A DNA stretch of 61,960 bases, counting the filler, from Platydemus manokwari (lineage: Eukaryota), in assembly GCA_037951405.1 (NCBI GenBank). It is 5 parts of 5 records of this genome, joined end to end, with 100 filler letters (N's around TTAATTAATTAA, not from the genome) between each part and the next. Parts side by side here need not be neighbours in the genome. Positions count along the whole stretch, not along the records: positions 36,585 to 49,332 come from JBBMOY011980267.1; 4 more parts are not named here. One strand, given 5' to 3'. The notes under the pieces were generated by a model. That model was not told the origin of the DNA. It saw only the letters and a program-made list of their open reading frames with translations, and searched no databases. Below are positions 10,201-61,494 of this stretch, piece by piece. Each line of letters opens with the position of its first letter. Position 1 is the first letter of the stretch. Position numbers and translations under genes: made by a program.

Positions 10201-12093
10201 TTCCGAAATCACCTTGCCATCATTATCCAACAGACCTTCAATCTCACAACCCCTCACATACATCAAACCCACTTGTGACGCCATCAATTCCTTGTTGTTA
10301 TATTTGTGATTAAAAGAAACTTTTGGACAGACAGTAATGAGAAAACATGGATCATGTTTGGCGAGATTATCCCATTCTTTTCTCACAAAATCCGAACTAT
10401 TGATCACAACTGTGATATCAGCTCGAACAAATTGCGGATAACTGCTCTCGATTTCCGGTTTGCCGATTTCAACAACTTGAAAATTATCAATTGGCATTGC
10501 CATTCGAGACCAACCATTGAATGCGACATCACCTTTCTCGTTTTGAACCGGTTTCATCATGCTTAAACATTGTTCGATATCTTGTTTGATCTCATAAGTG
10601 GCTTCCAAACGAAACAAATCGAAATTCCTCATCAGATAATCATGAAATGATAAGTATTGCACCGACAATTTAGGCATGGCAAAATTTTCCTCCAACGAAA
10701 AATATCCATCAGGAATCAGATTCTCGTCATAAATCAACTCTTCCGTTGGATAAAGAGCTAAATTGTTGATCCTATTCAAAGTAGAAGTTCGTTTTTTATA
10801 CGAATAAGAAAGCATCTAAAATATACATTTATATTTCATTATTTATTGACAATTTAACAAATTTAACCTTAATAATATCGTCTTTGGAATAATTTTCCTT
10901 TTGATTTTCCGAAATGATTTGCATGTCACTGGCCAACACTCGAAGATCGTCTTCCGTTTGATCATTCAAAATATTATAAAAATTGTCACCCTTTTCCAAA
11001 AATCCCATATTGGAAATCCACAATTTCCTCATTGGTTCTTTGAATTTGGAATAAGCACAGAATTGTAACTTTTCCAATTTTTGCCTGTGTCGACATTCCA
11101 ATTCCATATCGCTTAAAGTCGATCCCGTAATTTCATCGATTTCGAAATTTGCATAGAAATCCAACATTTCCAATAGTTGGTAAAACAATTTCGAATCTTC
11201 ACTTAATTTAACTAATTCTGAGTTTTGAGATCTAACGATAACATGCTTATCATCGATTACTGCATTTAAATATCGTCTAGAAACCATCATACTTTCCAAA
11301 TTGATAAAAAGAATGAGACAATTTTCCAGATATCGAATCATTAATGGATCAAACTATACAAAATTCAAAAATTACAAATAATTATCAAACAATTTTCACT
11401 TACTTTCAAAGGATTATTAAAATTTAAAACTTCAAGAAAGCAATCTAACAATTTTGGCAAGAATAATCTTCTAAATTTAATATTGGCTTCTGTTTTACTG
11501 TCTGATTTAAAAATTTTTTTATATTTCTTCTTGTACTCTTCATTTTTTGAAAGCTCTTCTTCTAGTCTGGACTTTGTTAAACAAGCCCACATTCCAAGAG
11601 ATAATAAATATTTTATTTCATCAAATACCATTGGCACTTCAGTTAAAGACAAAAAACAATTGTTCAGAAATTGAATAAGAATTATATTCTCTAACATGTT
11701 TTTCTTTATTTCAACTAAATCACGATTTTCAAAAATAGCTGGAAAATTTGACAGAATCATCTCTAATATTTTTTGAAAAAAATCCGAAAATTTACTGGGA
11801 GAACTTTTAAATGTTTCCCATGGACTAACTTTTTCTGATAATTTAATATTCGCTATTACACAAATTGAAATTATAATTTCTTTCTCGTTATGATTAATAT
11901 TTGTTTCATAATTTGGCCATAAATATTTTTCAAAGTATTGTGTGAATTCTAAAGCTTGTACTTGTCGGTGGGAAAAACCAAATTGTAGCATATGTTCATT
12001 ATAAATACGACTGACTACAGCTTCATCAAATTTTTTAATTTCAACAGACCAATACTTTTTAGCGATGTTCTGTATTTCCCAATTATCAGCCAT
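7231..12093 (-). CDS. AQR: RNA helicase Aquarius (IBP160/EMB-4), spliceosomal intron-binding complex subunit, ~1586 aa, 3 exons
   Basis: Exons are 12093-11404, 11353-10868 and 10815-7231. Both introns are phase 0: 11403-11354 (50 nt, GTAAGT...TATAG) and 10867-10816 (52 nt, GTTAAA...TTTAG). The N-terminal region has LEFTQYFEKYLWPNY. SF1/Upf1-like helicase motifs are present: GPPGTGKT, VTHSNQALNQLFEK, AMTCTHAAL, IEEAAQILEIE, IGDHNQLPP, TVDRFQGQQND and VALSRAR. Confidence 0.97.
7370..7725 (-). repeat. Coding minisatellite (24-nt / 8-aa unit) in the AQR C-terminus
   Basis: The protein repeats (E/D)E(I/M)TNEN(V/I) and TIDQNIDQ-type units. A higher-order duplicate, TINENIEETEIENKS(I/L)NETI, is also present. 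Confidence 0.9.
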
Positions 12094-12138
12094 AAAAATT
12101 TATATTAAAAGATTTTAAACTTAAACCACAATAGATCG

Positions 12139-21547: not shown

Positions 21548-22015
21548 AATTGTATTTGAGTAGAAAATTTAGTGTAGTGACTTTTCAGTTCGTTTTCAAT
21601 GTGTGGATTATTAAGAAATGGCGGCTTACAAGGCGACCACGCATCTGGATAAGATTCTGAGAAGATCCATGACTGAAAATTATGGAGGAAGATAGTGAAT
21701 CTATGGAGAATATATAAAGAAGTTATAAAGACGTTGTAGCGAAGTTACAAAGGAGATATAAAAGAAGGTAATTAGGGTTTTCGTGTAAATAAATATGTAG
21801 AGTTTTTGATACAGAAATAATTAAGAAAATCAAAGATTTTAAAGAAAAGGGGCGGGTGAGAATTTTTAAATGAATTCAATTTTTAAAGATTTAATTTAAA
21901 TTTCATTTAAAATTATAATTATTTGTTTATATAATTGTATTTGAATTGATAATTTTATTGTGGTGACTTTTCAGTTTGTTTTAAATGCGTGATTTTTAAA
22001 ATAGCCGCGGTTTTT
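21548..22015 (+). repeat. Tandem copies of the ~385-bp repeat family
   Basis: AATTGTATTTGA...GTGACTTTTCAGTT recurs at ~21548 and ~21933, a period of about 385 bp. Confidence 0.8.
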
Positions 22016-22899
22016 AAATATTATAAAAATGAAAATAATTGTAAATATTTCTTAAATAATTTTGTTGAACTCCCTAAATTTGTAATGAAATAGTCAGAGC
22101 TAACATAGGGAATAAGTATTTGCATTCGATTTTATGAAAATCAATACAAGAAAAGTATAGAAAAATATAATTTAAACAGTATAAAGAATCATAAAAAAAA
22201 TTTGAAAGATATGCCGTGCTCGATGTGATTTCAGAAAATTATAAGAAATTCGCAAAGAAAATATAAGATATAGAATGCAGAGAAAACAGATGAATACAAA
22301 TGTGATCAATGTAGATAAATATCGACAAGTCAATAACAAGAAATGTGAAGAAAATCAAAAATTCTTGTAATACATAGTAGTGTGGATATTTAAATGTGGG
22401 TCAAATAATTTTTAAATTATCAATATAGATATAAAAATATCTGAATAAAGAAGAAAATTCGAATTATTTGTTTTAATTTGAAGATAAAATGGACTTTAGG
22501 ATTGGACTAAAAAATTCGTTTTTAATTTTCGTGTGTTGTGAACCAGCAGCAGACAAAAATAACATTAATGACAGTTGTTTGAGATTTATATAATATAAAA
22601 TAAGAATTGAAAAAGAATCTCACAATAAGAGTCAAACAATGCAACTCAAAAATAAATAAACTCTATTTTATAAACGAATACAGATAGCAATAATAAAAAA
22701 GCTGTAAGGAAGAAATAAATAAGAATGTATATCACTAAATCAGATGAAATGAAATCACTTATCTTAGGAGTAAGTGTAGTCTCATAATAGTATATGGAAA
22801 TGAATGCAAAGTTTGTTGGCATTCACGATAAACATCAAAATGTTGTGAGAAAATTAAAAAATTTAAAGGAATAAATATCAAAGAAATATTTTTAAATTT

Positions 22900-33185: not shown

Positions 33186-35200
33186 ATATTTTAAAATATG
33201 TTTCGATATTGATGTATTGGCGAATAGATTTTTTGTTCTGTTGTAAACATGGCTTTTGATTTGAATATTAAAAATGAAGAAATTTTGGCAACCAACAGAT
33301 CTAAGAATATCGATTGTACAACAAACCAATCTTATATAGATGAATAATTTATTTAACCTTCATTCGTATATCCGCTGAAAGTATAATAATCACAAAGGCC
33401 GGTTTTTATAGCTATAAAACAAACCTTCTGATAATTCAATTTTAATTATCAAACGAACAATCCTATCAACGACATTCATCTCAATCTTATTCAATATTTG
33501 ATAAAAGATAACAGTCATGGAAATCTCCATTTCAATATCAGTATAATTATCAAAATAATATGTTCTAGATTTATTATCATTTTTATCAGTTATTAAAATT
33601 TAATTTTGCTGATCGATTTTGATGGTTGTCATCATCATTTCCTATATTGAAGCCAAATTTATAATACTGATATTGTCATTCAGTTCATTACTAAAAAGAC
33701 GAATTCATTTTATCTTCTATTGACAATTTGATGACGTAAAATATAAGATTGCTTTTAATAAATTACTTGATAAATTCCATTTATGAAATCCAATCGATGA
33801 TAACGTTCTTTACAAATGAATTTTTTTATAAATTTATGGCTATTGGAATAACGAAAAAAATTATTTACTTATTCCTGTTAATAGTCAGTTAAGTAATTAA
33901 ATAATTTTTTTATTGGGATTGTTTAAATGAAGTTCAATTTTGTTAAATATTACCTTGAACAGCATAGTATTCACGGTTTATTAAGTTGAAAATATTATAT
34001 ATGAATCCAAAGAAAAATGTTTTCCCTTCAAATCTGTGAAAAATGAAATCCGTGAGAAATGTTTGTGAAGAGATTTTTGTAAAGAAAAAACTGTGACACT
34101 CGGGCATGGTTTAATGAAATTCATCTTCAATCACTTAGGAAACGATTGAACTACTGTGCATATCTCCACATCATGATGGATATGCATCATTTGTTTGGCA
34201 AACCAATTTTCCTAGTGACATCACGAAATTATGACTGTAATTACCAAGAGACAAATGTCGATCTGTATTTGATTAAAATTGCGCTTGTCAATTATATCCT
34301 TGTCAAAATGTTTTTATTTTGCTTTTCATTGTTTCACAAAAAAAACTGTATCCTCTGAACCAGTCAGTGATCATCGATTGGTATGATTTCAAATTTTTCT
34401 GAACACGATCTTTCAATATTTCCTTCATTAGTATACTCGAAGGAAATATCGGTAAATTGTGGTAAATTAATTAGTAGAATATAATTAGGGAATTATTACA
34501 ATATAATGATATTATGGTTCGAATCCGAAAAATTAGAGTTTATCCACTTGATAGTGTGCCATATATATTCTCAATTAAACAGTGAATCCAATGAGAATTA
34601 CTCGTTTTAAATAAATAAAATCACTTGTTCAATTTTACTCTCTAAGATTATTAAGTTTTAAATTATAGTCTCTACCAAAATAAAAGTCATTTTTTCTATA
34701 ACACTAACCCATCTTATTCCCATTCGACAAACACTTTAAATCTATATTTTCCATTACTTCAACCGCTCAATGATTGATGTAAAAATATTTCGTTACTTAA
34801 CCTTAAACTTACTGAATATTTTTCATTTATAACTTCAATTATACCTTCACATTTCGTATGGATTTATTTTTATTTTACACAATAATTGCATAGTAATGTC
34901 GTTGAGAAGTTTGTTAGGAATTTAGCGTACAGTTTTGTTCATATCAGCTTTACAAAGTGTTCTGTGGAGAGGATTTTTCATAAGATTGAAATTTCTATCG
35001 TTATTTGTGTTTCGAACAAAATATTGCTCTGATTTTTATTCTGTTTTCACAGAATTCGATTAAATTTAACACCGAAGGATTTATACTTATCGTTACCAAC
35101 ATTTATGTAGCATAGAAATGCTCAAATGGTACAAGCTAGGCTTATTAAATGTTTATTTTAATATCATTTGGCAATTTTCATTAATATTATTCTTAACTAG

Positions 35201-35702
35201 TTCGACAACTGGTAATTTCGTTAAAACGTTGCTTGGTCAATCAATCAAATCAGAATCAGTTCACCATATTGAACCAAATGATCCATATCAATTAACTCAA
35301 CAAAAAATCACCGCATCTGCCATTAGTCTTCAACTAAAACTGGGACCCATGCAGCCTTCTCCCGCCGAATTTCAGTATCCAAAAACACATAGGCCAACAA
35401 GCGATAGTTTACTTTGCTTTAATCCTACGTGGTTTGAACGGAAATTGGCGGATGGATCTAGCCAGCCTCGCCCATGGCTCTCATACAGCAAATGTCTGAA
35501 TAAAGCATTTTGTATATATTGTATTCTATTTGGTAACAGCGCTAAAGTATCAGAATCATGGACCAAGACCGGATGGGATACATGGAATAATGGAAGTCGT
35601 GATATCAAAAGACATGAAGAATCTCCGCAACACAGAGCTGCAGAATTGGCAAAAGTTAAAGCCATGTCAGGATTTCACAGTCAACACAACAGCTTATTCC
35701 AG
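35201..35702 (+). CDS. TTF-type zinc-finger exon derived from a hAT transposase N-terminus (ZMYM1/THAP12-like); coding exon 2
   Basis: FNPTWFERKLADGSSQPRPWLSYSKCLNKAFCIYCILF...WTKTGWDTW...IKRHEESPQH carries the WLxYS..FCxxCxLF...W...HExSxxH signature. The acceptor TTCTTAACTAG ends at 35200 (phase 2) and the donor CAG/GTAGTT starts at 35703 (phase 0). There are no stops or frameshifts. Confidence 0.85.
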
Positions 35703-36096
35703 GTAGTTATTCATATTTATTAAACGATTTTTTCTGTTTATTTTTTACACATTACTTTCACACACTTTGAAAATAATTTCATAATATTAACAAAATGTCA
35801 TGATTTCTTTTTTGCCTTCACACTTCCATTTATATATATTTTTCATAGCAAATTAATAAAAATAATTTATTTTTTTGGCATTTTTTCATATTTAATCTTG
35901 AAGTAATTGAATGAAATAATTCACTTTTTCTCCATTTTGTTCATAATTATTTGATTTGGAGAAATATATATTGATTTTAGATTTATAAAATATTCCATTA
36001 TCAAGTTACTGGAGGGCTTCTTGTTTTAAATATTACAGCACAATATTATATTGTATCTGAATATTCATGTTTATCCATGTTTTTTCAATAATCCAG

Positions 36097-36584: not shown

Positions 36585-37192
36585 CTAAACATATCAACCA
36601 ATTGAATTTGAAAAATAAATTTATTGGTAATAATAGTTTAATAGATATTTTAATATTGATTTTTATCAGATATTTAATTAAATCTTGAAGTTAATTAAAT
36701 TAAAGTTTGAAGACAAGTTTTAAATGGAGACATATTTCCTTTAATTATAATCTAATGTTATGAGATATTCTTCCATAATTCTAATGAGTTTATTCTTAAA
36801 TTTCAAGTGCATTTGCTAAAAAATTGGTTCTTTTTAAAAATAAATCAATTAGCAATAATTATTTAACCATTTAGACTGAACTAATATGTTTAATGAACTT
36901 GAAATCATTTCAGAATATATTGAATTATAAATGGAGATCTTAATTTATTGTTATCGGTTTTATTCGTTTGAGATATAAACTTAAATTTTAAATCTAAAAC
37001 AATGACTTCATATTCTATTTCATGAAAGGCTCATGAACTTTTCAAAAGGACAAAATATTATAAATATATCTAACCAATCACTATACATGTGAGCATTTTA
37101 AATGGAATTAAAAATTGTATAGATTAAATTTTATATAAAATTTAAGTTGGAATAATTTTTTTTTCTTATAAATCAAATTTATTTGTTCAAGT

Positions 37193-37280
37193 AATTGTAT
37201 TTGAATGTAATTGGGTGTCGTGACTTTTCAGTTCGTTTTCAATGAGTGATTTTTAGAAATAGTCGCGGCTTACAAAACAT
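37193..37280 (+). repeat. Truncated copy of the ~385-bp repeat family
   Basis: AATTGTATTTGAATG...GTCGTGACTTTTCAGTTCGTTTTCAATG...CGCGGCTTACAA. Confidence 0.75.
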
Positions 37281-38080
37281 ATTTTTAAAAAAATATTTAG
37301 AGATTAAAAAAATTAAAATATAAAAATTATAGAAAATACTTTTTAACTTGATTTCAATCTTGAAAACTCACTGTTTTTTTCTTTAAAGAAAATGAATCCG
37401 TTTTTTCTAATCTGATAATAACTCATACTTTGTCGAAACTTGGATTTATTAAGTTTAAAATAATAATATTTGAGATACTGCACGTATAATTATATTTAAT
37501 ATTTAGTATAATATCGATTTCCAATTTATTAGAGACATAATTGCTCGTGAAAAATATCCTAAATATTAATTTAAAAAATGAATAAACATAAATGATAATT
37601 CTTCATTTTGAGCATCAACATTAGTTCTAAAAATCTAGTTCTAAAACATTTAAAATTTTAAGCACCAATTAAAATTTATAAAAAATTAACAGAACAACAA
37701 GTTGCACTTAAAATTTGGAGGAGCTACCAGCCTAATTTAATCTACTACCATTATGTCAATAAAAACGGGTTGTGAAGTTGTTAATAAATGGATTATCTGT
37801 GTACATTGAATAATATAAATCGATCAAATCCAATTTTTCGATTTCGAATAGCATGCCTCTGACTTTGCAGCCCTTAAAACAATAGTTAAATTAAAAATAT
37901 AATTTAATCACGCAGGGTACCAATTTTACAACGAAATTGATTTATTTTCAAAAATAATATTGATCCAACAAAAAATTTGTCTCTATTTTGACATGTAAGA
38001 GTTCATTATATTTTTAATTTAGAAAATTAAATATTTATGAAATTGGGAAATAATATTAACGATATGCTATTTATTATTAG

Positions 38081-41000
38081 CTTTACAAAGCATTAATGTT
38101 GAAAACAAAGGAAATATTACTTTTATTGATAATTCGTGCTGCAAGGGGCTGGATGCCAATGATTATAAATCGATGCTCTTGAGTTCTTTCGGAGAATTTT
38201 TCAGTAAGTTTTATAAATGCTCGTATATATGTGTGTGCGTGTGTGTGTGATATAAATTATTAAATGGTCTTGTATTGGGAAAATAAAATATTTCCTTAGC
38301 CTATAAAGGAAATTAGAATCAACTTCATATCTAATGTGACCATATCAGATTATCTTTAAATGAAAGAAAACGTTGTTTTTTATTACAAATGTTGTAAATA
38401 TTCAACCGAGAAGAATGTGTTCGATTTGAAATGCTTTCATTATCTTTTGTATGTGAACAAAGAATTAAACTAAATATTATTAGCAAACAATTATTTCAAC
38501 GAATGAATAAACTTTTCATATCTTTTAAAACAGGAACAAATGATATCTCATAGCAAATGCGAAGTTAGCTATTGTTGACGGATAAAATGACATGGTTATT
38601 GTTTCCTAGCAAACGATATACAAAATTGAATAATTTTATTATCTATGGTTATGCTTACCACTTTACTGTTTTATCTAATAATGTTGCTTTGCATTGGTCA
38701 TGTCGATTGCAGAAGAGTTCAGAATAATGTGAAACACAGTGTATTACTTTATCTATAGAGATATTCTGTTAGTGTGTTTATTGTAATCGATTGTTTTATA
38801 AGATTTAATAGTGGACATATAACGATATATTTTATGTTTATCGTATGACATATATTTGAGGCTATGCTTATTGCTGGAATGTCAAACCAACAACTAATTA
38901 TAATTCCAATAATTTTTTAGTGAATGAAACTCAAATGGTAAAAATAACTAAATTGATTAAAACCTTTTTCAAAAATGTAATAAAAATACAATTGAGGCGT
39001 TGAGTTTATTCAATAGTTTATTGAACCAAATAAAGTTAAGGCCCTTTAACAAAAATTAATTTTTATATCGAAATCTATTACTACGTTTTATAATTGTGAT
39101 TTGCTATCTGAATGAGATTGTCATTTACATTATTTTCTTGTTCATCTGAAAAATCACTTATGAAATGAAGTGCTGATATTCGTGTTCACTTCGACATGTT
39201 TCTATTTCAGTTTATTATACACATTTATGGATCAACCATTACATAGCTTCAAAAATTCTATTATTTTTGATATTTGCGATTCCTTACGTTACGCATAATG
39301 ATTTTTACAGAGTTTTAAAATTTTTCCGTTGTTTAAAGAAAATTTTTTATTTTAATGAAATGAATTTATATTTTAAATGTCATTTTGAACGTAATAACAT
39401 TTTTTTTCAGTTATACCCATAAATTTCTTTCTGGTTGATTTGATCGGCCGAAAAGGAACAATTGCCACATCATGTTTTTTTACATCAATATTTTTCATGC
39501 TGCTCTACAAATGCATGCCACACATATGGGCAACAGTCCTTATGTTTGGTATTCGTGGATTCACATCAGGTATATTCAATATCACTTACATTTATACATC
39601 TGAGGTATTGTTTAGTTATTAATTTATGAAAGGCAACTAATTAACGTTTTTGTTAGGTGTTTCCAACTAGTGTTAGATCTTCTGCAACTGGTATGTGCAG
39701 TTCCTTTGCACGAATAGCAGCCATTCTAACTCCGTTCGTAGCTCAGGTTTTAATTCCGCAATCATCAATGCTTATTGGATTACTTGTATATTCAATTGTA
39801 GCTTTTCTTTGTTTTGTTGCGACGGTGTGTTTACCAATTGAGACGAAAGGTCGTGCTATGCCGGTTAGTTCAAAAAACAAATTAAATTATTTAAATCCTA
39901 CTTATTTATCTTATAATTTTCAAACTTGAAAACTAATTTGAAATATGAGTGTATTTATTGATTTACTGAAAATCTTCTAAAATAGTAATTCATCTTTTTT
40001 ATTTTCCGATTGGATAGTTTATGTCCATGATTTGAGAGATGTGCAACTACAATATCTTTCATGGCCAACTTAAGGTGCTAATAAATATAAGTGACACGGG
40101 GTGTGAGTTCGAATCCACTAATGAAAAAATTATCAATGATAGATTCGAGGTCTTATTCATTACCGATGATTAGACTTTCTGTCGAAATCGACATCGGTGA
40201 AACCACTAAACCCTCAAGCACACAAAATTCACCAAAACATCATGTCAGCATAGTTAGTTAAAAAAATTTCTCCATTCTTGATATTCAAATCAAAAGTCAT
40301 GTTTACAACAGAACAAAAAATCTATACGACAATCATCAATTTTCACACAAATTTAAAATTATTTCCATCTGATTTGTCTTCATGTTTAATTCAAATATAA
40401 ACATGATCATATTATTAATATTACATCTTGTTTTTTTAAATATTTAAATTTTATATTTAATAATTTTAAAACTGAGAATTGAACAATATTTTTTAAGCAA
40501 GATCCTTTTATAATTATCAATATGATATATTTATTTTTAATATAATTTTTTAAACAAATCTTTTGGCTCAACTTTTTATAATTTTAATCATAAGTAAATT
40601 TTAATTATTTATCGTATTTAAACCTCACAAACCTTGTACAATGGAACTGAATATTTTGATTTCAATTATTTTTACAACTTTAAAATTGTGAATATTTTTA
40701 CTTCGAAATGAAGAAATACTTATTTAATAACTAATCTGTTAATAATTAGAATACCTGGACAATCTGAATATTTTACTAAACGAAAGAGAAATTCAATAAA
40801 CAGAGAATAATGTTCATATATTGAAATTATAAACTGAAGATTTGATTTCGGTCATGTTTCTTAGATTATAATATTTTGATCCACATGTTAAACTCTCATA
40901 AATAGTTCGCTTTTTATCTAATCTCAATCCTGATGATCAATTGAGAGAATCGGTTTATAGATTACGAAATTTTCATATTGATCATTTACGTTGACTTGAT

Positions 41001-41683: not shown

Positions 41684-42886
41684 TCAAAGCAAGATTTAAA
41701 ATATTTTGTTCGTCATTTTCAAGATGAGTTTACGTTAAATTTTACATGTGCGTTATTTTCGCTTATGTCTTTTACTTTATTGTTGTGGATCAATTCTCAA
41801 AAATATATGGGCCTTTTTTATCAGTCAATTTTATTTACCTTGTGACTATTTATGTAAAAGATATTTTTGATGTATTTTTATGACCTTTACTCAATAATAA
41901 ATCTTTTATTAGCACCTATCGATCATATTAATATTAAAAAATGTAAAATATTTTGAATGACAGTATTTTTTTTAAATATATTACTTGGAAATGTTTTTCC
42001 CAGCCATGTACAATTAATATTGGAAATTTGAAAGTGTGCTGAGTTCGATCAATTTTCAGAGATGATTTATTATATCGTTGGGTATTAGACCCCGCTCAAA
42101 TTAAAAGAATAATCAATAGATAAATTTTTATTCAGAAATTTCCTAAAAATAGTATGGAAAAAATTTAGATTAAAAAAAATAGAACAATAAAATAATTATA
42201 TCTACAAATAGAAACGAAAAATAAAGAGGTGTAAATAGCAAATAAAAAAGACAAAAATAGAATAAAGTTTATAATAAGGCAAAAAGTAAAAATATAATTA
42301 AGACTGAAAAATATTAAACAACGCCCAAGACACATAATAGCATTATAAATTCAATTATTGCCTATTGTCAATTTAATCAATAATTTGTGTTGAAGATTAA
42401 TTTTCAAACCGTCACTCGTGAGAAACATTTAAAAAATCAATTCATTATTAATGAAATAGACAAAATTTTTCTTGAAGAATTTTCTACGTCACTTTCAGTA
42501 AAAATTTTGATATTCACAATAACTTTTACCTTTTAAATTTTATGATATAATTCTATTGCAATAATATGACGTCATTTTTATACAATAACTATGATTAACT
42601 TGGGTTAGAATGGATTTGACTCAGTCCAACCCTTTCAGGAGTTAATACTTTAAATTTGAGAGCGAAAAATCATCTAAAATTAAGAGTGGTTTCTTACAGT
42701 AACAGGCTCATTCATAAGTAGGCTCTTCAGCAAACAATGCTCTTACGGCACAAGCATAAGAGACTTAATTTGAATCTTGTAGCAATAGACCCTCATATAA
42801 TAATAATAAGTTCAATAATAATTCTAAATTGTCATTGTCTCATAATTAATAATTGTAACCAACTTCGTATGAATTGTTTTAATAAT

Positions 42887-43382
42887 TGTTGGGGTATTAA
42901 CGAATATCAAACTCTGACTCCTCGGAGGTATATTAATCAATATACAAAACACACTGACAAACCTCGACAAATTAATATACAAAATACACTGACAAAATCT
43001 CGGCAATCGATATGAGCTCTATAACTTTACCAAATATGGTTTCCAACTGGCAGTTGTCTATCTTTACATTACTTTTTATACTTACGATCTGTGTGAATCT
43101 TTCTGTGTTATGATGTACTACAGTTTGATTTGGTGTTTGCCTTTCTGTGCTCTTATTGGATATTTAGGTTTTTACATGAATGGGATTGGTCAATCCCTAG
43201 ATGTGTGTTCAGTGTAGTTATGCCCATTTTTCCCGATTGTAATTTGCTAGCTAGCTTCACTGTAATTGGCCGATTGGCATGCCTGTATGGTCGTGCAGGG
43301 ATGCAAATGCTCAAAGTGCCAAAACAAGGGTTCCAATGTGTAATTTTGTTTTTCTTTTTGCAGAATTTCATCTTACTCAACA
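42887..43382 (+). mobile_element. Solo LTR (Gypsy-type), 496 bp; orientation given relative to its sister copy
   Basis: Termini are TGTTG...CAACA with a 4-bp TSD TAAT on both sides. It is homologous to 56594-56934 and has an internal ~37-bp tandem duplication at 42930-43008. Confidence 0.85.
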
Positions 43383-43477
43383 TAATTATATATTGTGCTT
43401 TCTTTCAACATGTACATAATACGTCATTTAGCTTGAAATTTCAAACTGATGTCCTCAACATGTTGGGTTGTAAGTAT

Positions 43478-44040
43478 TGTTGGGAACCAAAATATAAAAT
43501 AAAATATAAACAAAATATAATAATAATTAATGCAATTAATTAATAGCCCACGTACTACCCACATTACCGAAAAAATAATAATAAAATTCATTATACATCA
43601 CCACGGTAACAATTATAATAATAATATTTATTAAACACATCACCATGGTGATTTAATGTGTCACCATGGTAACATCAAACAACATTCAAAAAAATTAATA
43701 ATCAAACCATCAACGCTCTCATCAAGTGGAAATTTTCCAATGCAAGCGGTAAATTTTTCGGTTAATTACATGGGTATCGTACAAAGTCGCACGAGTTCGT
43801 ACTGATACTCATTCCTAAAATCATATAGCGATACAAAGGCGAAAGCATTTGCACCGAATCATCAGGACGATGTAAAGCCGCAAGGATTTGCAGACGTAAC
43901 ATTTTAATTAAATTAATAAGCTAAAATCAAATCTCATTTAGTTCATCGTCCGAAGTAAGTTGGCACTTAGTTCCTTACGTCGGTTTGTTTTAAAACTCTT
44001 CAGAACACAACACTGCTATCTGTCAAATTGTTACACAACA
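43478..44040. mobile_element. Possible second solo LTR
   Basis: Termini are TGTTG...CAACA and the internal GC content is higher than the flanks, but the flanks do not form a TSD. Confidence 0.35.
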
Positions 44041-45725
44041 CATTCGTTAATTTTTATTATAATAAACGTATCGTATTAACATTTTGTTATTGCTCATATC
44101 ATTATTATATCTATCAGTACTATTATATCTGAATAATTACATGCAACTCAATTACTGATTAAAGTCGGATTATTGGTGGAATCATCATTACTCCGGTTCT
44201 AATCATCATTGAATAGTGCATAGATAATTCATCGAGTTCTGCTAGTTGAATTATCTCTTATAAATACTCACCAGATACTACTGAGCACAGGCTAGTAGGA
44301 TTCCATCAGTATTAATCTATTTATTATAACTATATATGAGTACTGAAAGTTTGATATGATTTGATTCTAATTTTTAATATTACTTATTTAAGATCCTACT
44401 TACGAAGTAATCTGAAAATTTCGAACTGCTAAAATGCCATAATAAAATGGTACAGTAACTCTAAATAACAACTGAACACAATGTTATATTGATCTTCTCC
44501 GATTTTCATTAGCATTGAAACCAAGTATTCTGAATGTCTTTAGTTTCTGCTCCACCCATGTCTCTCATGGTTAACTATTTAATAATCGGATCCTATACCT
44601 GCAATTTATTACACCCTTTATTTTTATTAATAATCAGAAAAGATACTCTGTTCATTTCAATCTTAATTAAACCAACGACTCGAACAAATTTAGCTTGACC
44701 TGATTTCAGAAAACAAGGAAACAAATTAATTCGTAGATAATCTTTGATATTTGCACGCCACACTTTAGTATAGATTTTAAGATATCCAGATTATAATTAA
44801 ATAATAAATTAATAATATGTTAACTACTTCATCGGCTTTCTTTGATTATTGATCTTTGGCGTTATCTTTGGTCATATTTTCTTATTCTTAATTTCTATTA
44901 ATTATTTATTACTTATAATTTAAAATAATTTTTTTTAAATTTATTATCATTATTGCTTGATAACATTTTTTTCTGATGAACATAAAAGTTTGATAAAAAG
45001 GCTTCGGCTGTTTATACGATGGTATACTATTGGAACAAGACCGAAAACTAAAAATTAGTTCTTCATGAACAATTGTAAGTAAGCCTATAGGACAACCGAA
45101 CAGTATCTTCAACAAACAGACACAACCAATTCTTAGTAAACTCGCTATCAAAAAATACCTACATTCTCCAATCCTCAAATCCAACAATACTCACTCAATC
45201 AAATCCAGCAACATCCTCCCAAATCCAATCTTAACAACAATCATCAATACACTTTGTATCCTCACAATCAGTCTTCAAACCCAACCTTAATAATCCAGCA
45301 ACCTTGAGCAGTCAACAATCTCCGATTTCAATAATGATCAGTTAATACTCCCAAATAGCGTGACAATAAAACAATGACATTCTATCTATTGATATTTGCA
45401 TTCGCTTTATTTTTATTTTTTATGATTTAACATTTAAAATTATATTGACAGTTTGATATTTGCTTTATTCGTATGTATGATAGCTTTTCGATTATGATAT
45501 CATCAAAAATCACTTTGAAAAATATATTAACTCTTTTATATTGTAAGTCGGAAAATAGAGATTATTAAGAGCAACACAGTGTTAATTTATAGTTAAATAA
45601 TGAATTACAATATCAAGAATAATAAATATACAAAAGAGAGAATATAGCATTTGGACGGTAGAACAACATAAATAATATTAATAAATAAGAACAGTAAATT
45701 ATGTCGAATAAAAAAATATATAAGC

Positions 45726-45727
<2 letters not shown>

Positions 45728-45775
<48 letters not shown>
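45728..45775. repeat. (AAT)n microsatellite
   Basis: Uninterrupted AAT run. Confidence 0.95.
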
Positions 45776-45776
<1 letters not shown>

Positions 45777-46195
45777 GTAGTGAAACTTATTGATATTCGA
45801 ATTCGCAGTCATTGTTATTTATCAAGCCGATTACATGTTTTATTTAGTATTTATTTGTTGCATGGTTAATTGTTAATGAACTTTAATTAATTTTCTTGAT
45901 TTGGTGTCGCCGCTCCTGTTAATCTCCTTCCGGAACCCGGTATTTTTGGTATCACGTAGTTATCTGCTTGCACAGTGTACTTTATGATTTGCCAAACTTG
46001 TTTTCGTTATTTTTCGTGTTATCTTGTTTTTCGTTTTCCTAAATAAACATTTACTAACAATTTTGCGTTATCTTAATTATTAGATAGACTCTTAATATCA
46101 TTCATATTGCGAATCCTTGTTGCCAAGGTTAACAATATTTTGGGTAAATCATTGCATACCTTTATTCAGTCTATTTCCGAATGCTATGTCTCTAT

Positions 46196-47320
46196 ACTTT
46201 TTAACAGAATTAGCAAAATTTCATCAAGAATATGAGGAAATTAAAAATAGCAAAGACATCAATGAATTATGGGAAGAATACGATTATAGACAAAGAAATC
46301 GAAGCAATATTAACACATTAAGAAAGTTGTTTAAAATAACAATAGATATAAGACCAGGGAATGACAGTATAGGAAATGGAATAATCATGATAAATTGGTG
46401 GAAAGATCGGGATAAAACAAATGAGATAAAGAGAATAAGTGTAATAATCGAAATACTAAGATCAGAATACGTAACTGAAGAAACAATAAGGAAAACAGAA
46501 ATAACATTGCAGCATAAGGATATTAATGTAGAAGGAAATTGGAAAAGACGTCGAAGAAAAATAGATAGGATGATAGAAAATACATACATGTGGTCACGTT
46601 CAAGTTTAAAAATTCAAACAAAATTAATTAATGAGGGAATAATTAAAAACGATGCTTATGGATGGGCTGCTGAGTTGTTAACTTGGAAATATTTAAATTT
46701 ATGTCAGGGATATTGTTTGGAAGGACAAACATATAGGATAAGAAATAAACTACGGGAAATATATATATGCCTGAAATAATAATATATCAATTGGACAAAT
46801 TAATAAAGAATAATGAAGAGGGAAAAAATATCGAATTAAGAAAACTAGAAGAAATTGAACAACTAAAAGAAAAAGATATCATACAATCCGAAATGATGGG
46901 AAATAAATTTGAAGGGGAACTAGGCAAATTTAAATTGGTAATACAAGACATTGAGGGACAACAAATTCACAAAGAACAAATGTTTCCATTAAATACATCA
47001 ATAAAATTATTAAAAAAATTAATTATCCTGGAATGGCCGAAAGAGTTGATAGAAGTGAGAGGAAAAATCAAGATATTACAAGGGAATGAACAAGTAATAG
47101 GATGGAAATATTTAGGAGAATATTATAGTGAAAATAATAGTGAACCCATAGTAATAAAGAATCTACCAGCAATGAATATAACAAAAGCTAGAGAGCAATT
47201 TTTAAAAACCATACACCCCCGAGCAATCATGACATACCAGATACTGACATAGAAAATAACATGGAATCAGAACCTATAGCGGTGAATAATGGTGAAAAAC
47301 CAAGAAGATGGAGATCTTTT
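46196..47320 (+). pseudogene. Fragment of an unknown A-rich polyprotein ORF (repeat-borne) with ubiquitin-like domain(s)
   Basis: ORFs 46117-46779 and 46767-47252 join through a slip in an (AT)n run. The first ~357 bp are homologous to 47327-47682 on the opposite strand. Confidence 0.6.
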
Positions 47321-47326
47321 TCAATG

Positions 47327-49332
47327 GACGTCTTTTCCATTTTCCTTCTACATTAATATCCCTATGCTGCAATGTTATTTCTGTTTTCCTTATTGTTTTT
47401 TCACTTATGTATTCTGATCGTAGTATTCCAATTATTACACTTATTTACTTTATCTTATTTGTTTTATCCCGATTTTTCCACCAATTTATCATGATTATCC
47501 CATTTCTTATATTGTCATTCCCTGGTCTCATATCTATTGCTATTTTAAACAACTTTCTTAACGTGCTAATGTTGCATCGATTTCTCTGTTTATGATCATA
47601 CTCTTCCCATAATTCACTGATGTCTTTGTTATTTTTAATTTCCCCATATTCTTAATGAAATTTTGCTAACTCTATAAAAAGTCTTCCAGATGTTTTTCAC
47701 GAATGACATGCACATATACGCGGTTTTATATTTTACATGAAATTGATTTGAGACATGTTTTTCCTCTTCATCTCTTTTTTTTAATGATTGTAACACGTTT
47801 AATCTCTGTTCTTCGTTATCTTCTTTTTCCCATATTTCTTTCCATGACAGCATCCTTCCTTTTCTTATTGCTTTTGTTATGAACAGTTTTTTATTAATCT
47901 TGCTTCCAAGTCGATTCTCGTTATTATTTCGATTTCTTCACAACTATCCGTTAAATTATTGCTTTCTATTAAACTATTTCCAGGAGATTCCATTAATCCA
48001 AATGATTTGTCTTCACTATTATTGTAACCTTCTTCATATTCATTTTCATATTCCTTATCATTGAGCAATTGTATCCCATTATTATCAGAGTTCATCATCA
48101 GTATTATTCATATTATTTTTATTTCCTAATACCTCAGCTATCAACTGTGATTCTGGTTCAATATGGTGATTTGTGATCATCAAGTTTCCTATTATCCCCC
48201 TTTCCAAGTTTAATTCCTGTATTCCACTTTCCTTACTAACTACACATATTCTTCTACTTTCTATTTCGTCATTTTGGTTAATTTCTTTAATTGGTTTATT
48301 TTCTTTTACATCTTTTAATTGCACATAGATACTGTCTGATTCATATTGTGAGAATCCCAAGTCAATTAGATATTCCTCATCCCCTAGATTCGTTATTTTA
48401 TGTAGTACTACTATTTCCGATGCTATTTGTTGTGCTATTCTTTTCTTAATTTTTTTAATTTTCGTGCATGCATGTGTCGTAAAATTTATTTCATATTCCT
48501 TTTCTCCATGAAATATCCATACATTTATTTTTAGTAGTTTTAGTAATTTAGGATTTTTTCTTATTATTCTTCCACATATTTTTATTGTTTTCCATTCTTC
48601 ATTGTTTATTTGTATTGTGTTTCTTGCGTATTGCTGTACTTGTTGGATTATATTCTTGGCTTTTACAAATTCCTTTTCATTCACTAGTCTTTGTAACTTT
48701 TCCACTTTTTCCGTTAATGTTAATGATTTCTTTTCCTCTAATTTTATGTCATTTTTCTCTTCAATTTCTTCTGTTTGTTTTTCCAATGCATATTTATTCA
48801 TTGCTATTTGATCAATGTATTGTTGTATTATTTGTCGTCTATTAGTGGCTATTGTTCTGTTTTCTCTTCCTTCTTCTTTTTCGCTAATTGGATAGCAATT
48901 CATTGTTGGTCTTTGAGTGTAATCCATATTTTTGCTCTCCCTTCTTTCATTAAATTGCGAATGATCTATCTCCATGTATTTCACTGATTGCAATTCTTCT
49001 ATCTTTTTGATTAATTCCTCTTTTTCTCTTCTTAATCTCTTCATTTCAATTTTATATTCCCATTCAGATTTTTTGGGTTTGTTCTTTTGATTTCTTAAAT
49101 TTATCTTCCAACATTCTTTCTCACAATATCTTTCTTTCTTTTTATATTTGCATTATTCTGTTTTCTTTATAACACCTAACTTCTTTCTTCTTTTTTCTCA
49201 TTATATCCCAATGTATTCGCTCTTGTTCTTCTATTTCTCTTTTTAATTCTGCTTTATATACTGGTCATCATAATTTTTGACACACCTTATAGCTTTTGAG
49301 GTGGTTGTTTTTTTTGTGTGGGGTTTTGATGT
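47327..49332 (-). pseudogene. Second, more N-terminal fragment of the same polyprotein ORF (coiled-coil plus ubiquitin-like domain), frameshifted
   Basis: Consecutive ORFs 49044-48085, 48098-47877 and 47853-47635 continue into the shared segment. The sense strand is strongly purine/A-rich, there are no introns, and the fragment runs off the contig end. Confidence 0.6.
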
Positions 49333-49432
49333 NNNNNNNNNNNNNNNNNNNNNNNNNNNNNNNNNNNNNNNNNNNNTTAATTAATTAANNNNNNNNNNNN
49401 NNNNNNNNNNNNNNNNNNNNNNNNNNNNNNNN
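49333..49432. other. Artificial contig-joining spacer
   Basis: 44 N + TTAATTAATTAA + 44 N. Confidence 0.95.
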
Positions 49433-51241
49433 GTTGTTTTAAATAAATTTATGTACAACAAATTTTTATTTCCAATTTTGTCCGCGAACTTTATTTACAA
49501 CCTAATATTTCGCATGTAATTGATGTTTCAACAGAAGAACTCATTTTCTTAAAATTTACTTAATTACAACACTTAATACAATTTTTAAACAAATTATAAT
49601 TCCAGAAAGTTTTGATATCGATCTTAATCAGGTCTATCTATATAAAACAATATTAAAATAACTTTTTAAATTATCTTATTTTATATAATAAATTTTAAAA
49701 TTCCAAAATTTTAATAAATCTATTATTATATTTATTATTTAAAATAATCTTTTTTTAAAATCATTATTTAAAATAAAGATTTTAAAATTAATTTAAAAAT
49801 TATTTCAAACTATTTTGAAATTTTAAAATTATTATTTAATTAAAATTAATGCTCACAATTTTTATTTTAGTCCCTTGGGGGCGCGAAACAATTTGGACTA
49901 GTAAAATGGGTTGGAACACAAGAAGTGTGAAAACCAGTGATTTAAATAAACATTCATTTAATAGAAGCAAAAAATCATTGAAAAAGTAAAAAAACAAACA
50001 CAATATTCAAATATCGAGTTGGTGAATTGAAAAAGAAAATTTCTTACCTAGAATGTGAAGTTCTGTTTTCTAAAGGTTTCTATCGGAAAACAATCTATTT
50101 CAGGGAAATTTATCTGGTTCAAGGTGAAAGAAAACGTTCGGTTTATAAGAAAAAACTTTTTGTAGTTTTCCTTTAATAATATTGATATCAATAATAATAA
50201 TCCCTAATAATTAAGGCCAATGTACACTAGAAAGTTTTCTCTATTATTATCGTATGAAATTTATGTTGGGTGTCATTCCAAGGTGTTATAAATGAATAAA
50301 ATGTGAAGCAGAAAATTGGTTTAATGTCTTTATACATTTTAATAATTTGATAATGACCTTGACTCATTAACGGAATGATAAAGATTATCTTCAACGTCAA
50401 ACTGACCTAAAATCCGATATCTATAATCAGACTTTGACCTGCTTCGTTATATAGTTTCATATTTTAGTCTATCAAAAAAATACCGTAATTTCGAAATAAG
50501 CGCTGAATCAGTCATAATGATTCTACAAGTGTCTTGGTAATAATTTACACTGCCGAATTGCTCTTACTGTGGACAAATCAAAAACTTTTAAGAAAAATCA
50601 GATTTAAACAAAAGATGTCAGATTGTTTCTTTGAGCTTAAATTGCGTGACAAAATTGATTGCAAGTCATTATATTTTTGATTTCAATAAAAAATCGATAA
50701 AATAAAGCCGTATTGCTTTAAAATCGTTCCGTAAAGACTGTACTCTCATATTGTCATCAAAATCATACCGATATAATATCTAAGTAATTAAAATATGGAC
50801 AATCGAATCTTTGATATTGATTATTTCTGTATGCAGAATTTTCTAGGTTTTTCACCCATATTCTTGTCGATGGAATGTTTTAGTATATCTGGAATTAGAC
50901 AAATTTCTCTGAAATAGTTTATCACAGATTCAAAACAACTACAAGGCCACAACTTCTCAATGTACGTTCTAGACAATAAATTTGCGTTTTCAAGACGTTT
51001 TATATTCTAGTGTGTATCAGTGAGATTTAATTTCCTTAAACAGATCTAGAGCTATCAATTTGGTTTTTTGGTAAAATCGAGAATTAATATTCGATTAACA
51101 GTAAAATAGATGTGTGGTTTTGTGGCGTTCTTTTAAATCTAGCTTTTTTAATGCTTAATCATCATTAGAAATAATCAATTTTACTTAATATCGAAATATT
51201 TATTGATCTATGTGTGAAGTGAGTTGATACATACTGATAAG

Positions 51242-51480
51242 ATTTGCAAATGTGCCATTAGCTAATCAGGTTTTTGCTATATTTTCAATAATCACCCAGT
51301 GCATACCAGCAAAGGGAAATAAAAATCAAGATTTGCCAATGGCACGAGAGGGTTTTTAACAGATCAATGTGTGAACCACTCTATGGAATGAAAGGTAAAG
51401 CTCTGAGACATCGGGTGAACACACATGATAATCCGATAAAAGGAGTCGGATGTCACGAGCATCTGTCAGTATATTTTTCG
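51242..51480 (-). mobile_element. Possible Helitron PIF1-helicase remnant
   Basis: Translation FAGMHWVIIENIAKT*LANGTFA resembles the GxPVMxxxNI...GLxNG motif of PIF1 helicases. Confidence 0.35.
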
Positions 51481-53964
51481 TTGGTAAGCTCTATACTGTG
51501 TGACTTTACGTGATTTTTTCCGACAACCAGTATTCGTGGTTGTCTTCTGTTTTGTATTCAACTTTTATATGCTGACCGCACTCAGAGTGATTTGACAGTA
51601 CCAAAAGATTATCCATGGATAAACTTTTCCATAATAATGAGCAGTGATGCTACATAATAGTATATACAATGTTATTACCCTGAGCAACTCTGATGATTGC
51701 ATTTCCCAGACAAATCTCTAACTATTAACGAAATTAACAAATCAATATCCTATACTGACATGCAATATATAAACATATACAAAATATTTTCACAAGAAAT
51801 CATCAAATCAGGGTTTTGTTTCGAATAACATAAAACTTTAAACATTTTTTCAATCATTCACATCGATAATAAAAAATGTTTCAGAAATTTTTCAAACTAG
51901 ATTTTCTGCTTCGATAACGTGGATTTCATTTTTCATAGCCATTTAATAGACAGTTCGATCCGGTTTCGCAGACATTGTTTCAAATTTTGAATAACGTTTC
52001 TGTTTTCATGAATTATTTACATTTATATATTTCTTTTACTGCATAAAACCTCGTGTCAGTTATATTACTATTCAGTACTTTTCAAAGGCATTGTGTGGTA
52101 GATAAAGACTAACTATTAATTAAAATAAATTAATTAAGTTAGAAAATAAATAATTTCAATTATTATTTTATTGGTGATGATAATTACAAGATTTGTTAAC
52201 GATAATCAATAAAATTGGAAATAAAAATCAATATTATTAAATATTGAAATAATGTTTAATCGATATTATTATCTTGATAGTGATATTAATAATAATTTAT
52301 TGATTATGTATTATATTGGTAGGTGCTGAGTTAAGATTATTATTTTAATGGCTTACATTGAATATGAAATTTTTAAAACACCTATTAACATAATCAAATA
52401 AAAATTCATAGGCTCAAGGTTAAATATGTGTTAAAATCGCAATATTATTATGGTAATATTGGTCCCCCAATACTCTTAAAACTATCAAATATCTTGAGGT
52501 AACTAAATTTCCAACTGTTTTTCAGATCCCTTTGTGGGATTTAACGGTTAATAAAATGAATTAATGAAATAAGTCTTTGAATTTTTATCTTAGGTTAATA
52601 ATTACCATTTATTGGAATATAATAATGCTTCCAGAAGTGAGAGGATTTCAATATTTTAATTAATCTCTGTGAATTCTATTATTTGATTTTGTGTTGGACT
52701 CCCAGGTCAAGTATCAATTTTAAATTTATTTCTAACAATTTTAGTTTATTATCTAGGATGATTAGGACGACTAGCGATATTGTGGTAACAACGATATCAT
52801 CAGAGAGACAGGCTTGGGATAAATTAATATCTCGGATAGAATTTATCAGCAGTGTAGCATATCAGAGCTCAATTTGATATTTTCCTCTTGAAATTTTGTT
52901 TGGACGACGAATTAATATGCATGGGTCACGAATAAATCTCTCAAGCCACCACGACCAGATAATCAAAGAATCGGAAAACCAGCTAAATCCAGTAGCCACA
53001 AACTTAAGGAAATTTGATGCTAAAAAGAGATTGTAGAATTTTTGCTGTCGGAGAAGAAGTTATAGTGAAGAAAGAATCACACAAGGCAATGAAAAACGGA
53101 GATCATTATAAAAGTCCTCACAAAATTTTGAAATTTTTAAGCCCACATTAAGTGTTTCTTGATTTACAGCGACAACCAAAACCACGAAGAATTGAGTGGC
53201 TAAAAAATCTCAAAAATACGTGTGATTTTTAAAATAATAAATATTGACGGAAACAACCAATGTTTTTACTGTAAAAAATGTCATTCGAAAACTTATCTAG
53301 TTTGTTGGATTTGAAAGAGCAGAATTATAATGAAGAGAGAAATACATTTACAACACCAGTTTATAAGCCTTTCTAAATAGAATAGTTATTGATCATATTT
53401 TCTTATTTCTCGATATGAAATGAAGATTAAAAAAGAAATAATAAACAAAAAAATAAAAATACTTTTCAATCCAATATTAGAATAAATAAATTTTCCATTT
53501 ATTATTGAATTTGAGGCGTTGTTAAAATAAAAAATATTTTCTCCAATTTTTTATTAATTTGTTGATATTTTCAAAATTTAAAATTAGCATTTTAAACACT
53601 GCTATCACAGACTAATTGAAATGGATTTAGTATCCGGTTTGAATTAATTTTTGAAACGATGGCCGCTGTGTGAAAATGAGTGTTTCTGTGACTGACTAAT
53701 TTGTTTTAATTAACTTATCTCCTGTCACTCCTGGCCACGGACAATATGGAGTAGATTAATTCGTGTAGATTGACGAATTGTTTTCGTTGTGTTGATAAGG
53801 ATGGACAATGTGTACAAATCATGACAATCTCATCGATGGAGATATTGGATCGGATTTTATGAACCTTTCTGGTGAATATTCTATTGGCTGTGTGGATGTT
53901 TTCACTACTCAAAGCCAACAATATGTGGCCATTAATCTCCATATGATTTGAAAGATCAAAAATA

Positions 53965-54570
53965 ATATTTATAATAATAATAATAATAATTTGGCTTGAT
54001 TATAATATGGTGCCTGGAACCAAAAGAATATTTTAACAGATGTGCCGAAAATATATTGCTAATTTAAAAGTGCGCTTAAAGAGCGGGAGTATCTCTTGAA
54101 ATCACCATTATGTCTTTATTTGGAGTAGTCCATATTGCAGCAAGCGTGATTGCATAAGTTGTATATTTAGAAGTCTTCTTGGTAGAGTTAGTTGATAAAT
54201 AACGTGTGTTGTAATATACGAGCGTGCATAATAGGAGACTCTAGTTTGTGATAATAGACTGAAGTAGTTCCTGTGCTGGTATTTTCATGAGAATTATTGA
54301 AACAGGCGTCTTACCTTACGAGATAAATTTTCTTTATGGTTGTTACCATAAATATTTATTCGTATTCATAATTAATTGATCAATTTAGTGGTAGCCTGTA
54401 CAATGTGAGGGAGTTAGTTTTAGAATGAAAGAGCATGTTAAATTTGAGAAGTTCTAAATCACTTGAGAATATATCTATAAGTACGGACAAATACAACTAC
54501 TCATAGAATCCTTATTGATTCTAGGCAATTAGCAGACACAGTGAAAATTGCTTTGTCTAGGCACTCCATT
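53965..54570 (-). mobile_element. 3' end of a LINE (L2/CR1-like) with (ATT)n tail
   Basis: The decayed ORF2 end YAITLAAIWTTPNKDI...LFKRTFKL resembles IWNxLP...FKxxLK. It is followed by a short UTR ending CAAGCCAA(ATT)n. Confidence 0.4.
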
Positions 54571-59049: not shown

Positions 59050-59400
59050 CACTCTGTCTATGATACACTTCTGTCTATCCATTGACTTCAAGTTCACCTG
59101 TTCCGTTCTTCTAGCTGAACCACCCTTGCTATGTTGATGACATTGTAATTATAAGTACTCACCAAAGATCTTCATCTAAAATTCACTGTTCAAAACTGTG
59201 GATACAATACAATAGCCCTACTAAACACATCGACCTTACCATCTCTGATGAACCAGATCCGTTAGTTGATAGCACTAACATCTGTAAATATCTTGGAATT
59301 CATTTTCGAAAAGCAAAGCTGGCATCAATCACTGAAATTCATCAATCAATCATAATCGACTTTGAAGTTATTTTTAAATTCTGTAAATCTCCTTCCTTCA
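59050..59400 (+). mobile_element. Non-LTR retrotransposon reverse-transcriptase fragment (R2/NeSL-like)
   Basis: In frame from 59115: LNHPCYVDDIVIIS (YxDD catalytic motif)...PLVDSTNICKYLGIHF (KYLG motif). Confidence 0.7.
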
Positions 59401-59524
59401 TTCACGCTTACCTTTGCGTAACTGAATCGAGAAAATCCTTTCAATCAATCAGATATTCACATGTTGTGACTATTATGGTTAATATTATTTATTACTTATC
59501 ATATTTTATTTATTATCTATCGCA

Positions 59525-59528
<4 letters not shown>

Positions 59529-59565
<37 letters not shown>

Positions 59566-59583
59566 GTTATTATTATTATTATT
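59529..59583. repeat. (ATT)n microsatellite
   Basis: ATT run with one GTT interruption. Confidence 0.95.
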
Positions 59584-61494
59584 ACAAATCAAATTGCTAA
59601 GCCAAATTCCTTTTCTAATCATGATAACTCTGTATGATTTTTTGATTTTGTGAATTTAATATGTTTAATGACTTATTTCGTAATTAATAATATATTATTA
59701 TTTGTTCCTATTGAATTATTGTAAAAATTTATAGTTTCTCCCAATTTCGTTCTAATGTTAAAATGGTGTCCTCGACAAATCTCATTAAATTGAAATTTGA
59801 CCTAACCTGACCTGTATTTTAAATAATCAGCTTTCATGTGATTTTAAAATAGAATTTTATTTAAAATTTCATTTCAAACAACTAAAGTTATTTTTGCGAG
59901 CCTATAAAATTCAAAATTATGTTAAATAATTTAGTTAAATAAACTATATAGATTTTTGCAATACGCTCAACAAATGAAATTTTTTAGAACACCTTTTTCC
60001 TAATTTTAGCTAAAAATCAATGAACATATTGAGCTTCTACATGATCCTGTTGTTGTGCTTCCTTCTTATTTGTTTGTTGTATTCTAATGTTCATTCTTAA
60101 ATTTCAAAGTTTTCATTTCCAGAAAATTCCCGATTTCTTAAAATATTTATTGTTTTATTGGTTTTGAAAAATAATTAATTATAGTTGATTGCTTCTTTCT
60201 TAATAATATGAATTAATTGTTTAAGTTTTATATTTTCTACATTATCCTTATTTTTTTCAACAAATAATTAATTTTAATCAATATTTAAAATTTTAAATTA
60301 TCGATTTTTCACATTGAGTATGGCTAAAATTCAAAAACCACTAAATTAAATTAATGAAAAACTAATTATTAAATAATAAAATAATCAATAATAAATTATA
60401 AAAATAAAATAGCATAAAAAATAAAGAAAAATTCGCAAGAAAATAGAATATTGCGAAACACCTTTGATCCATTTACCTTTCTAAATGCACCTTTTCTCAA
60501 TCCCTGGATTTTTAATTTATTAAAATAAATAATTTAATTTGTTTCAAGGAATTTTTAATTTCTTTGATGTACATTTTTTAAAGATAAAATTAAATGTTTT
60601 GCAAATAAAATGTTTTTATTTTGACATACAAAACTACGGAGAACGTAATTTCTTTAATTTCTTTGCATGGGTCGATTTTATTGAAAATCGATAGTGCATA
60701 AATCAATGTTTTATGGATGACAGGGATCTTATATAATGACATTTTGAAAAGTGAATTTTCTGCTATAATTATAGAAACAACTATTCTGTGTTTTATGAAA
60801 GGACTGAAGAGATTATGACGTAATATAGTTGTATAATAATAATTCTTTACCGAAACAAAATTTATTCTAAATGAGATGTAGAAAACAAAGCTAGTTACAA
60901 AATGATAAAAAAATCACTCATCTCGAATATTTAATTTTCATTCATCGATTTTTAATAGTTTTTAAGCAAATTAAGATTTAATGTGTTTGCTTAATCTTCA
61001 CATGATCAACTTTATGAACTAATATTGACCTTACCAGATCATGAAGACATGTTTAATGTCTGATATCTTGAATACGATTAATGAATTTGACAAGATTTCA
61101 AAATTATTTCGTTATTTAACTCAGGGTCATAAAAGGTAAACTTTCCAATGTATTGTGAAGGTTATAATTATAGTTTATATAGTTTTAATAGATTATAGTT
61201 TTAATGATCATATTAAATCGAAAATATATTGATATTAAAAATATCAATGATCAATTAAATTTGTTTAAATGTTTCGATAAAATGTATTTTTATATCTTGA
61301 AGTTCTTCGGTTCGTTTTCAATTCGAATTTTTGAAATAGAATCAAATAACAAGGTAATCAATATTTAAATTCTATACTGAGAAGATCAAAGCCTGGCAAT
61401 TATTAAACTGCAGATACAGAAGATAGATGTTAGAGTGAAAATAGAATATATGTAGGTAATAAATAAAGATTTGAATAAAGTTAATCATATAGGG

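Follow-up and report, generated by a model that had tools for sequence, protein, structure and literature searches.

Opposed copies of a decayed repeat with two likely ubiquitin-like domains, plausibly from the cargo region of a Burro-like element

Results

Organisation of the locus

The window, which is the whole stretch of 61,960 nucleotides of DNA that was analysed, carries at 46196-49332 one repeat in two partial copies, which occupy opposite strands and meet tail to tail (Table 1). The first 367 nt of copy B and the end of copy A are identical at 331 of 367 nucleotides (90%), and the clean match stops at the palindromic hexamer GACGTC, which is likely the junction between the two copies. 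The coding strand is purine-rich in both pieces, in line with the A-rich strand noted in a preliminary description of this DNA, and the bounds 46196..49332 given there agree with the overlap of the repeat. The peptides quoted for units U1 (48534-48310, reverse strand) and U2 (46926-47162, forward strand) were also found in place.

The single ORF of roughly 900 codons that had been described is absent. It is a join on paper of two copies from opposite strands: the longest stop-free frames in the region are 355, 227 and 167 codons, and a reading as one protein requires about six frame changes. With each base counted once, the region amounts to about 2,700 nt or about 900 codons, so the described length estimates this ancestral coding part reasonably well. 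The reported lack of introns carries little weight, since the host Aquarius gene of the same window is nearly intron-free too, with an uninterrupted frame of 1194 codons and no more than two apparent introns, each about 50 nt long.

The 355-codon frame produced no meaningful Pfam match. At its start (49152-49100, reverse strand) a cysteine spacing is present, without a Pfam match, which we take to recall a degenerate MYND-type zinc finger. Segment C, on the other side of copy B, has a perfect (AAT)16.7 tract at its end. It gave no credible match in Pfam or PDB, and neither a reverse transcriptase nor an endonuclease; a short peptide in it presumably recalls, by eye, the C-terminal region of a gypsy integrase, with no database match.

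Table 1. Positions of the features discussed, counted along the whole window.
Feature	Position	Strand	Remarks
Segment C, repeated decayed coding-like piece	45780..46195	-	adjoins copy B head to head; ends at (ATT)n
Copy B	46196..47327	+	partial, decayed copy of the repeat of copy A; faces copy A
Middle segment	46324..46776	+	includes the third unit of the preliminary description; unlike U1 and U2
U2, likely MUB/Rad60-SLD_2-type ubiquitin-like unit	46926..47162	+	no Gly-Gly end; modest support
A-B tail-to-tail junction (likely)	47327..47332	.	palindromic hexamer GACGTC; clean A-B match stops there
Copy A	47327..49332	-	partial, decayed; 5' side meets gap filler at 49333; several frame changes
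Longest open frame, 355 codons	48085..49152	-	coiled-coil-like charged N-terminal half, then U1
U1, likely ubiquitin-like unit	48310..48534	-	no Gly-Gly end; weak support

Decay of the copies and size of the repeat family

Over 342 gap-free nucleotides, 31 differences were counted between copies A and B. They fall evenly on the three codon positions (11, 10 and 10), so both copies look dead, and copy A carries two premature stops within its overlap with copy B. The pN/pS ratio was 0.84 (p=0.32) when transition bias was allowed for and 0.49 (p=0.04) without this correction. These values fit a mostly neutral decay of both copies with possibly some past selection, and 46196-49332 itself likely makes no protein.

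The region belongs to a large repeat family. In the public run X1, 947 contigs matched 45800-49330, of which 581 were below 95% identity; 230 contigs were at least 99% identical, 136 fell between 95 and 99%, 251 between 90 and 95% and 330 below 90%. The summed contig depth exceeded 1000 in 19 of 30 bins of 45800-49330, and segment C is repeated as well (depth 1727 in one bin), while a 403-nt contig identical to the locus had a depth of 12.6. Internally deleted variants occurred among the contigs of the repeat. Summed depth is not copy number and the counts come from one run, possibly the source sample itself, so they are read as many copies only, some mutually near-identical and some internally deleted. 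The near-identical contigs of high depth suggest that the family still has young members. With the contig counts and the neutral divergence of A and B, the repeat-borne nature given in the preliminary description was supported. Next to the gap, in the final bin (49222-49330), the summed depth rose to 44,345, far above the remainder of the element; a different, very abundant repeat or the end of the element is perhaps located here.

Ubiquitin-like units

Three cuts of unit U2 matched the Pfam family Rad60-SLD_2 (PF13881), with E-values of 0.0091, 0.0025 and 0.0012. The highest score, 19.4 bits, lies under the curated cut-off of 23 and covers profile positions 8-45 of 111; Rad60-SLD_2 was the only Pfam family matched in both domain cuts of U2. 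In the PDB, entry 1se9 was the second of two matches (E=0.52). Four of the six Atlas rows listed for U2 were ubiquitin-type clusters (0.88-0.90), the best of them with 136 common features against 170 typical of true family members. As in the MUB/UBL3 family (PF13881, PDB 1se9), the region of the first half with the FP-N-TS and LKK-II-EWP motifs is found in U2. The unit differs in lying inside a longer frame and in having no terminal cysteine motif, a feature of the MUB family. On these sequence matches, U2 is quite probably ubiquitin-like.

The single-sequence model of U2 consists of a strand, strand, helix, short helix, strand, strand and short helix, at a pLDDT of 61.7 and with the last strand lacking a confident placement. 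Searches with this model returned nothing at a Foldseek E of 0.001 or lower or at a Z of 5 or higher, and no chain described as ubiquitin-like was among the matches listed in the four fold searches. Model and searches thus appear to speak neither for nor against a beta-grasp fold.

For U1, three of the seven Atlas rows listed were of ubiquitin type (0.84-0.85), which below 0.9 are leads only. There was no Pfam match, and the PDB sequence search yielded a chance match to a zinc finger, as did a profile of U1 and U2 together, whose PDB matches included no ubiquitin chain. The score of the U1-U2 alignment was equalled by 14 of 2000 shuffles, this being one of 15 pairs tested, and of the 56 segments of the element compared, each unit matched the other best, self-matches aside. 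Chance Pfam matches with an E-value of about 0.008 were also obtained on neighbouring pieces (Ependymin and Terpene_synth_C), so that a single score of that size proves little and the evidence lies in the agreement of several weak tests. Taken together these lean, with less assurance than for U2, towards a ubiquitin-like nature of U1.

Neither U1 nor U2 is followed by Gly-Gly, as had been noted. The described ubiquitin pattern has modest support for U2 and weak support for U1, and the proposed integral, non-conjugatable ubiquitin-like domains are likely for two units, the third being unsupported. Directly after U1, the stretch 48250-48100 on the reverse strand had no Pfam match and resembled neither U1 nor U2; judged by eye, it could be a further ubiquitin-like unit that lacks its last third.

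The third unit, in the middle segment, is as similar to U1 and U2 as shuffled sequences are: 1016 of 2000 and 1624 of 2000 shuffles equalled its scores (z of -0.1 and -0.8), and it had no Pfam match. By eye the middle segment is possibly MATH-like, with no match to MATH in Pfam or PDB. Pfam, PDB and the protein libraries returned nothing informative for this segment, and its predicted fold was poor (pLDDT 32.8), with a meaningless outcome of the fold search. A single match was obtained against 1.84 billion representatives, to a repeat-rich protein of bacterial type, and was judged spurious. The MATH domain is reported to be absent from bacteria in the available part of one study (PMC8195603). 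A Bcl-2-like character of the middle segment, considered from sequence motifs, was dropped for want of a match of any sort.

Searches for relatives and element hallmarks

No relative was found for the 355-codon frame among 5134 candidates, in a comparison with longer proteins only, nor for the 167-codon frame among 72 candidates. Viral, metagenome and prokaryote genome contigs and phage records contained no relative, and NCBIfam and PHROGs returned rows at chance level only. In six-frame Pfam scans of 36585-61960 no gag, protease, reverse transcriptase, RNase H, integrase or env family was detected, nor any transposase, polymerase or capsid family. Rfam yielded no hammerhead and no other match in 42000-54000. 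Within the window no LTR was recognised and no long direct repeat surrounds the locus.

A Burro-like element was defined by a Gag with CCHC knuckles opening a polyprotein of about 5,000 aa and by an Env between the cargo and a gypsy-type Pol with PR-RT-RH-IN. The lack of Pol and Env at the locus is expected, because copy B is a fragment that ends at the junction; copy A is cut by gap filler at 49333 on the Gag side. With no gag, pol, env, LTR or true protein relative found, we can only infer the class of the element.

Discussion

A Burro-like cargo region as the best reading

The order seen at the locus, a coiled-coil-like stretch followed by U1, the middle segment (possibly MATH-like, by eye) and U2, fits the cargo region of the Burro elements, and a Burro-like class is the best reading. 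We put at roughly 0.55 the probability that the locus consists of two tail-to-tail copies, diverging neutrally, of a repeat that likely formed the cargo part of the polyprotein in a giant Burro-like Ty3/gypsy element and that has two likely ubiquitin-like domains. The class assignment is plausible and draws on the domain content, the host and the literature.

According to the sections available of PMC6431247, Burro/GYPSM1, giant Ty3/gypsy LTR retroelements of planarians, are present in thousands of copies. Their single ORF1 encodes Smc, MATH_TRAF_C, a Ubi2/SUMO-like motif and BCL-2, placed after Gag and before Env and Pol; decayed Burro fragments with stops and frameshifts are reported there from another planarian, Dugesia japonica. 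The repeat is similar in its high copy number, its AT-rich and likely flatworm genome, its coiled-coil-like stretch and the SUMO/ubiquitin-like motif within a long coding region, possibly with MATH just before it, and its decay resembles that of the Dugesia japonica fragments. It differs in that Gag, BCL-2, BIR, ankyrin, Env, Pol and LTR were not seen at the locus, Burro being compared by description only. In the described part, Burro has one named Ubi2/SUMO-like motif (PF11976), whereas two likely units with a match to PF13881 are found here. Several ubiquitin-like units in one Burro polyprotein were not found in the literature covered, from which Grohme 2018 and supplements were outside the scope.

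Other flatworm elements can be placed beside the repeat. Smed_errantivirus_1 and _2 are given, in the part of PMC13524379 at hand, as GAG-ENV-POL errantiviruses of Platyhelminthes, from Schmidtea, of about 14.8 kb, with 45 and 215 copies listed. These gypsy elements resemble the repeat as multi-copy flatworm elements and differ in that no env or pol is present at the locus. Ubiquitin and Bcl are unmentioned in the accessible main text of that paper, and Burro is merely named in the accessible portion of PMC11410931.

The giant-LTR, planarian-type mobile element of the preliminary description therefore remains as a plausible best reading, with no gag, pol, env or LTR linked to it within 36585-61960. 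Its 'accessory ORF' is probably wrong, as the SUMO-like motif of Burro sits in the main ORF1 polyprotein, and the word 'unknown' overstates the novelty, a SUMO-like motif and a MATH domain being published in Burro (both from the available sections of PMC6431247). By this comparison, the repeat is likely a further instance of an element type already described with ubiquitin cargo.

The flatworm host was examined with the Aquarius gene. In a tree of 41 rows, 40 of them chosen from the 120 matches listed and none named as a triclad, the sequence of the window falls in a set of three rows with Macrostomum (98% SH-aLRT) on a branch of 2.88. This placement could agree with a flatworm host and is no proof, the branch being very long and attraction possible.

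Alternative explanations

A different retroelement, non-LTR or Penelope-like, with the ubiquitin-like units in its first or an accessory ORF, appears unlikely. On this view, the 3' end of the element and its (ATT)n tail would be represented by segment C, and its 5' part, inverted by twin priming and inserted into the older copy A, by copy B. An inverted 5' part abutting a 3' segment is the geometry of twin priming, and copy B is indeed inverted with its 5' end against C, which ends in the AAT tract and is repeated too. AAT tracts recur across the window, however, and the B-C link is absent from the 15 contig joints listed of 45. Moreover, C holds no reverse transcriptase or endonuclease match and presumably recalls, by eye, an integrase end, 42000-54000 is without an Rfam match, and no paper was found on such cargo in non-LTR or Penelope-like elements. 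A DNA transposon or endogenous viral element, Polinton-like or similar, with a cargo gene for ubiquitin mimics is improbable. Its multi-copy nature, the purine-rich coding strand and the failure to find a cellular homolog would suit it. Against this stand the absence of a viral, metagenome or phage relative and of a credible PHROG (in collections that are poor in animal viruses) and of any transposase, polymerase or capsid family in 36585-61960, and the only inverted termini around the unit are the A-B overlap itself.

It is very improbable that the copies are pseudogenes from a host gene family that expanded and whose members have ubiquitin-like and perhaps MATH domains. The summed depth runs into the thousands, compared with about 12 for the locus itself, and deleted variants occur; together with the rearrangement and fragmentation of the locus and its setting among other repeats, this fits a transposon better. 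A and B also diverge near-neutrally. Nearly intron-free host genes in the window and the lineage-specific MATH expansions known in animals speak for the pseudogene reading. It is also doubtful, in a way that overlaps with the alternatives on element class, that the ubiquitin resemblance of a real repeat arose by chance from a composition rich in Lys, Ile and Glu. All scores are weak, chance Pfam matches reached like E-values and the PDB search with the U1+U2 profile came back without a ubiquitin chain; yet both units draw ubiquitin-type Atlas clusters and match each other best, and a MUB-type family is matched by U2 in Pfam and PDB alike.

Proposed mechanism and meaning

Under the Burro-like reading, the stretch would in active copies be translated inside a long Gag-Env-Pol polyprotein as a coiled coil, U1, a possibly MATH-like part and U2, and the protease of the element might release or trim this cargo. 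Ubiquitin-like modifiers cannot be conjugated without a Gly-Gly end. Since U1 and U2 have none, they may provide binding surfaces for host proteins that read ubiquitin or SUMO, or serve as decoys for them, in keeping with the untested 'tinkering' idea of PMC6431247. The A-B join likely arose at the palindromic hexamer, where the position of the junction points to template switching or recombination between two copies.

The locus itself matters little, as a dead and rearranged relic of a kind that is likely already known to carry ubiquitin-system cargo. As the protein libraries searched contain no relative of the family, its intact copies could show that Burro-like elements occur in a new lineage and reveal the number of their ubiquitin-like modules. 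Interference of the cargo with host ubiquitination or apoptosis was raised as a question in the available sections of PMC6431247; this question is not made more testable by the locus. It is unlikely that an undescribed class of large elements (non-LTR, Penelope-like or virus-derived) independently acquired a cassette of two to three non-conjugatable ubiquitin-like units and a MATH-like one. If so, several unrelated elements would converge on the ubiquitin/SUMO system of the host.

Other features of the window

The gaps at 12139, 22900, 36485 and 49333 consist of a common artificial filler of 100 nt, runs of N around TTAATTAATTAA, and are not genomic. The host Aquarius (AQR) helicase gene lies at 7231-12099 on the reverse strand; it is strongly divergent, residues 20-330 having an identity of at most 57% to the 120 relatives listed, and has an acidic tandem-repeat tail. 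Exons of a host major-facilitator transporter were located on the forward strand at about 39400-39900 (Pfam MFS_1, E=0.0008).

Two further frames on the forward strand resemble mobile elements. The frame at 35070-35723 has a weak match to zf-C17orf113 (E=0.0004) and, we assume, likely begins a relic of a hAT-type transposase. At 59115-59600 a frame of 161 codons with a YVDD motif is followed by an AT-rich triplet tract; it had no Pfam match and is likely a decayed reverse transcriptase. Other families of dispersed repeats, 72-86% identical, were found at 32941-33286/40263-40605, at 43030-43393/56582-56851 and at 16221, 21454-22029 and 37088-37290, and two of these families are in inverted orientation.
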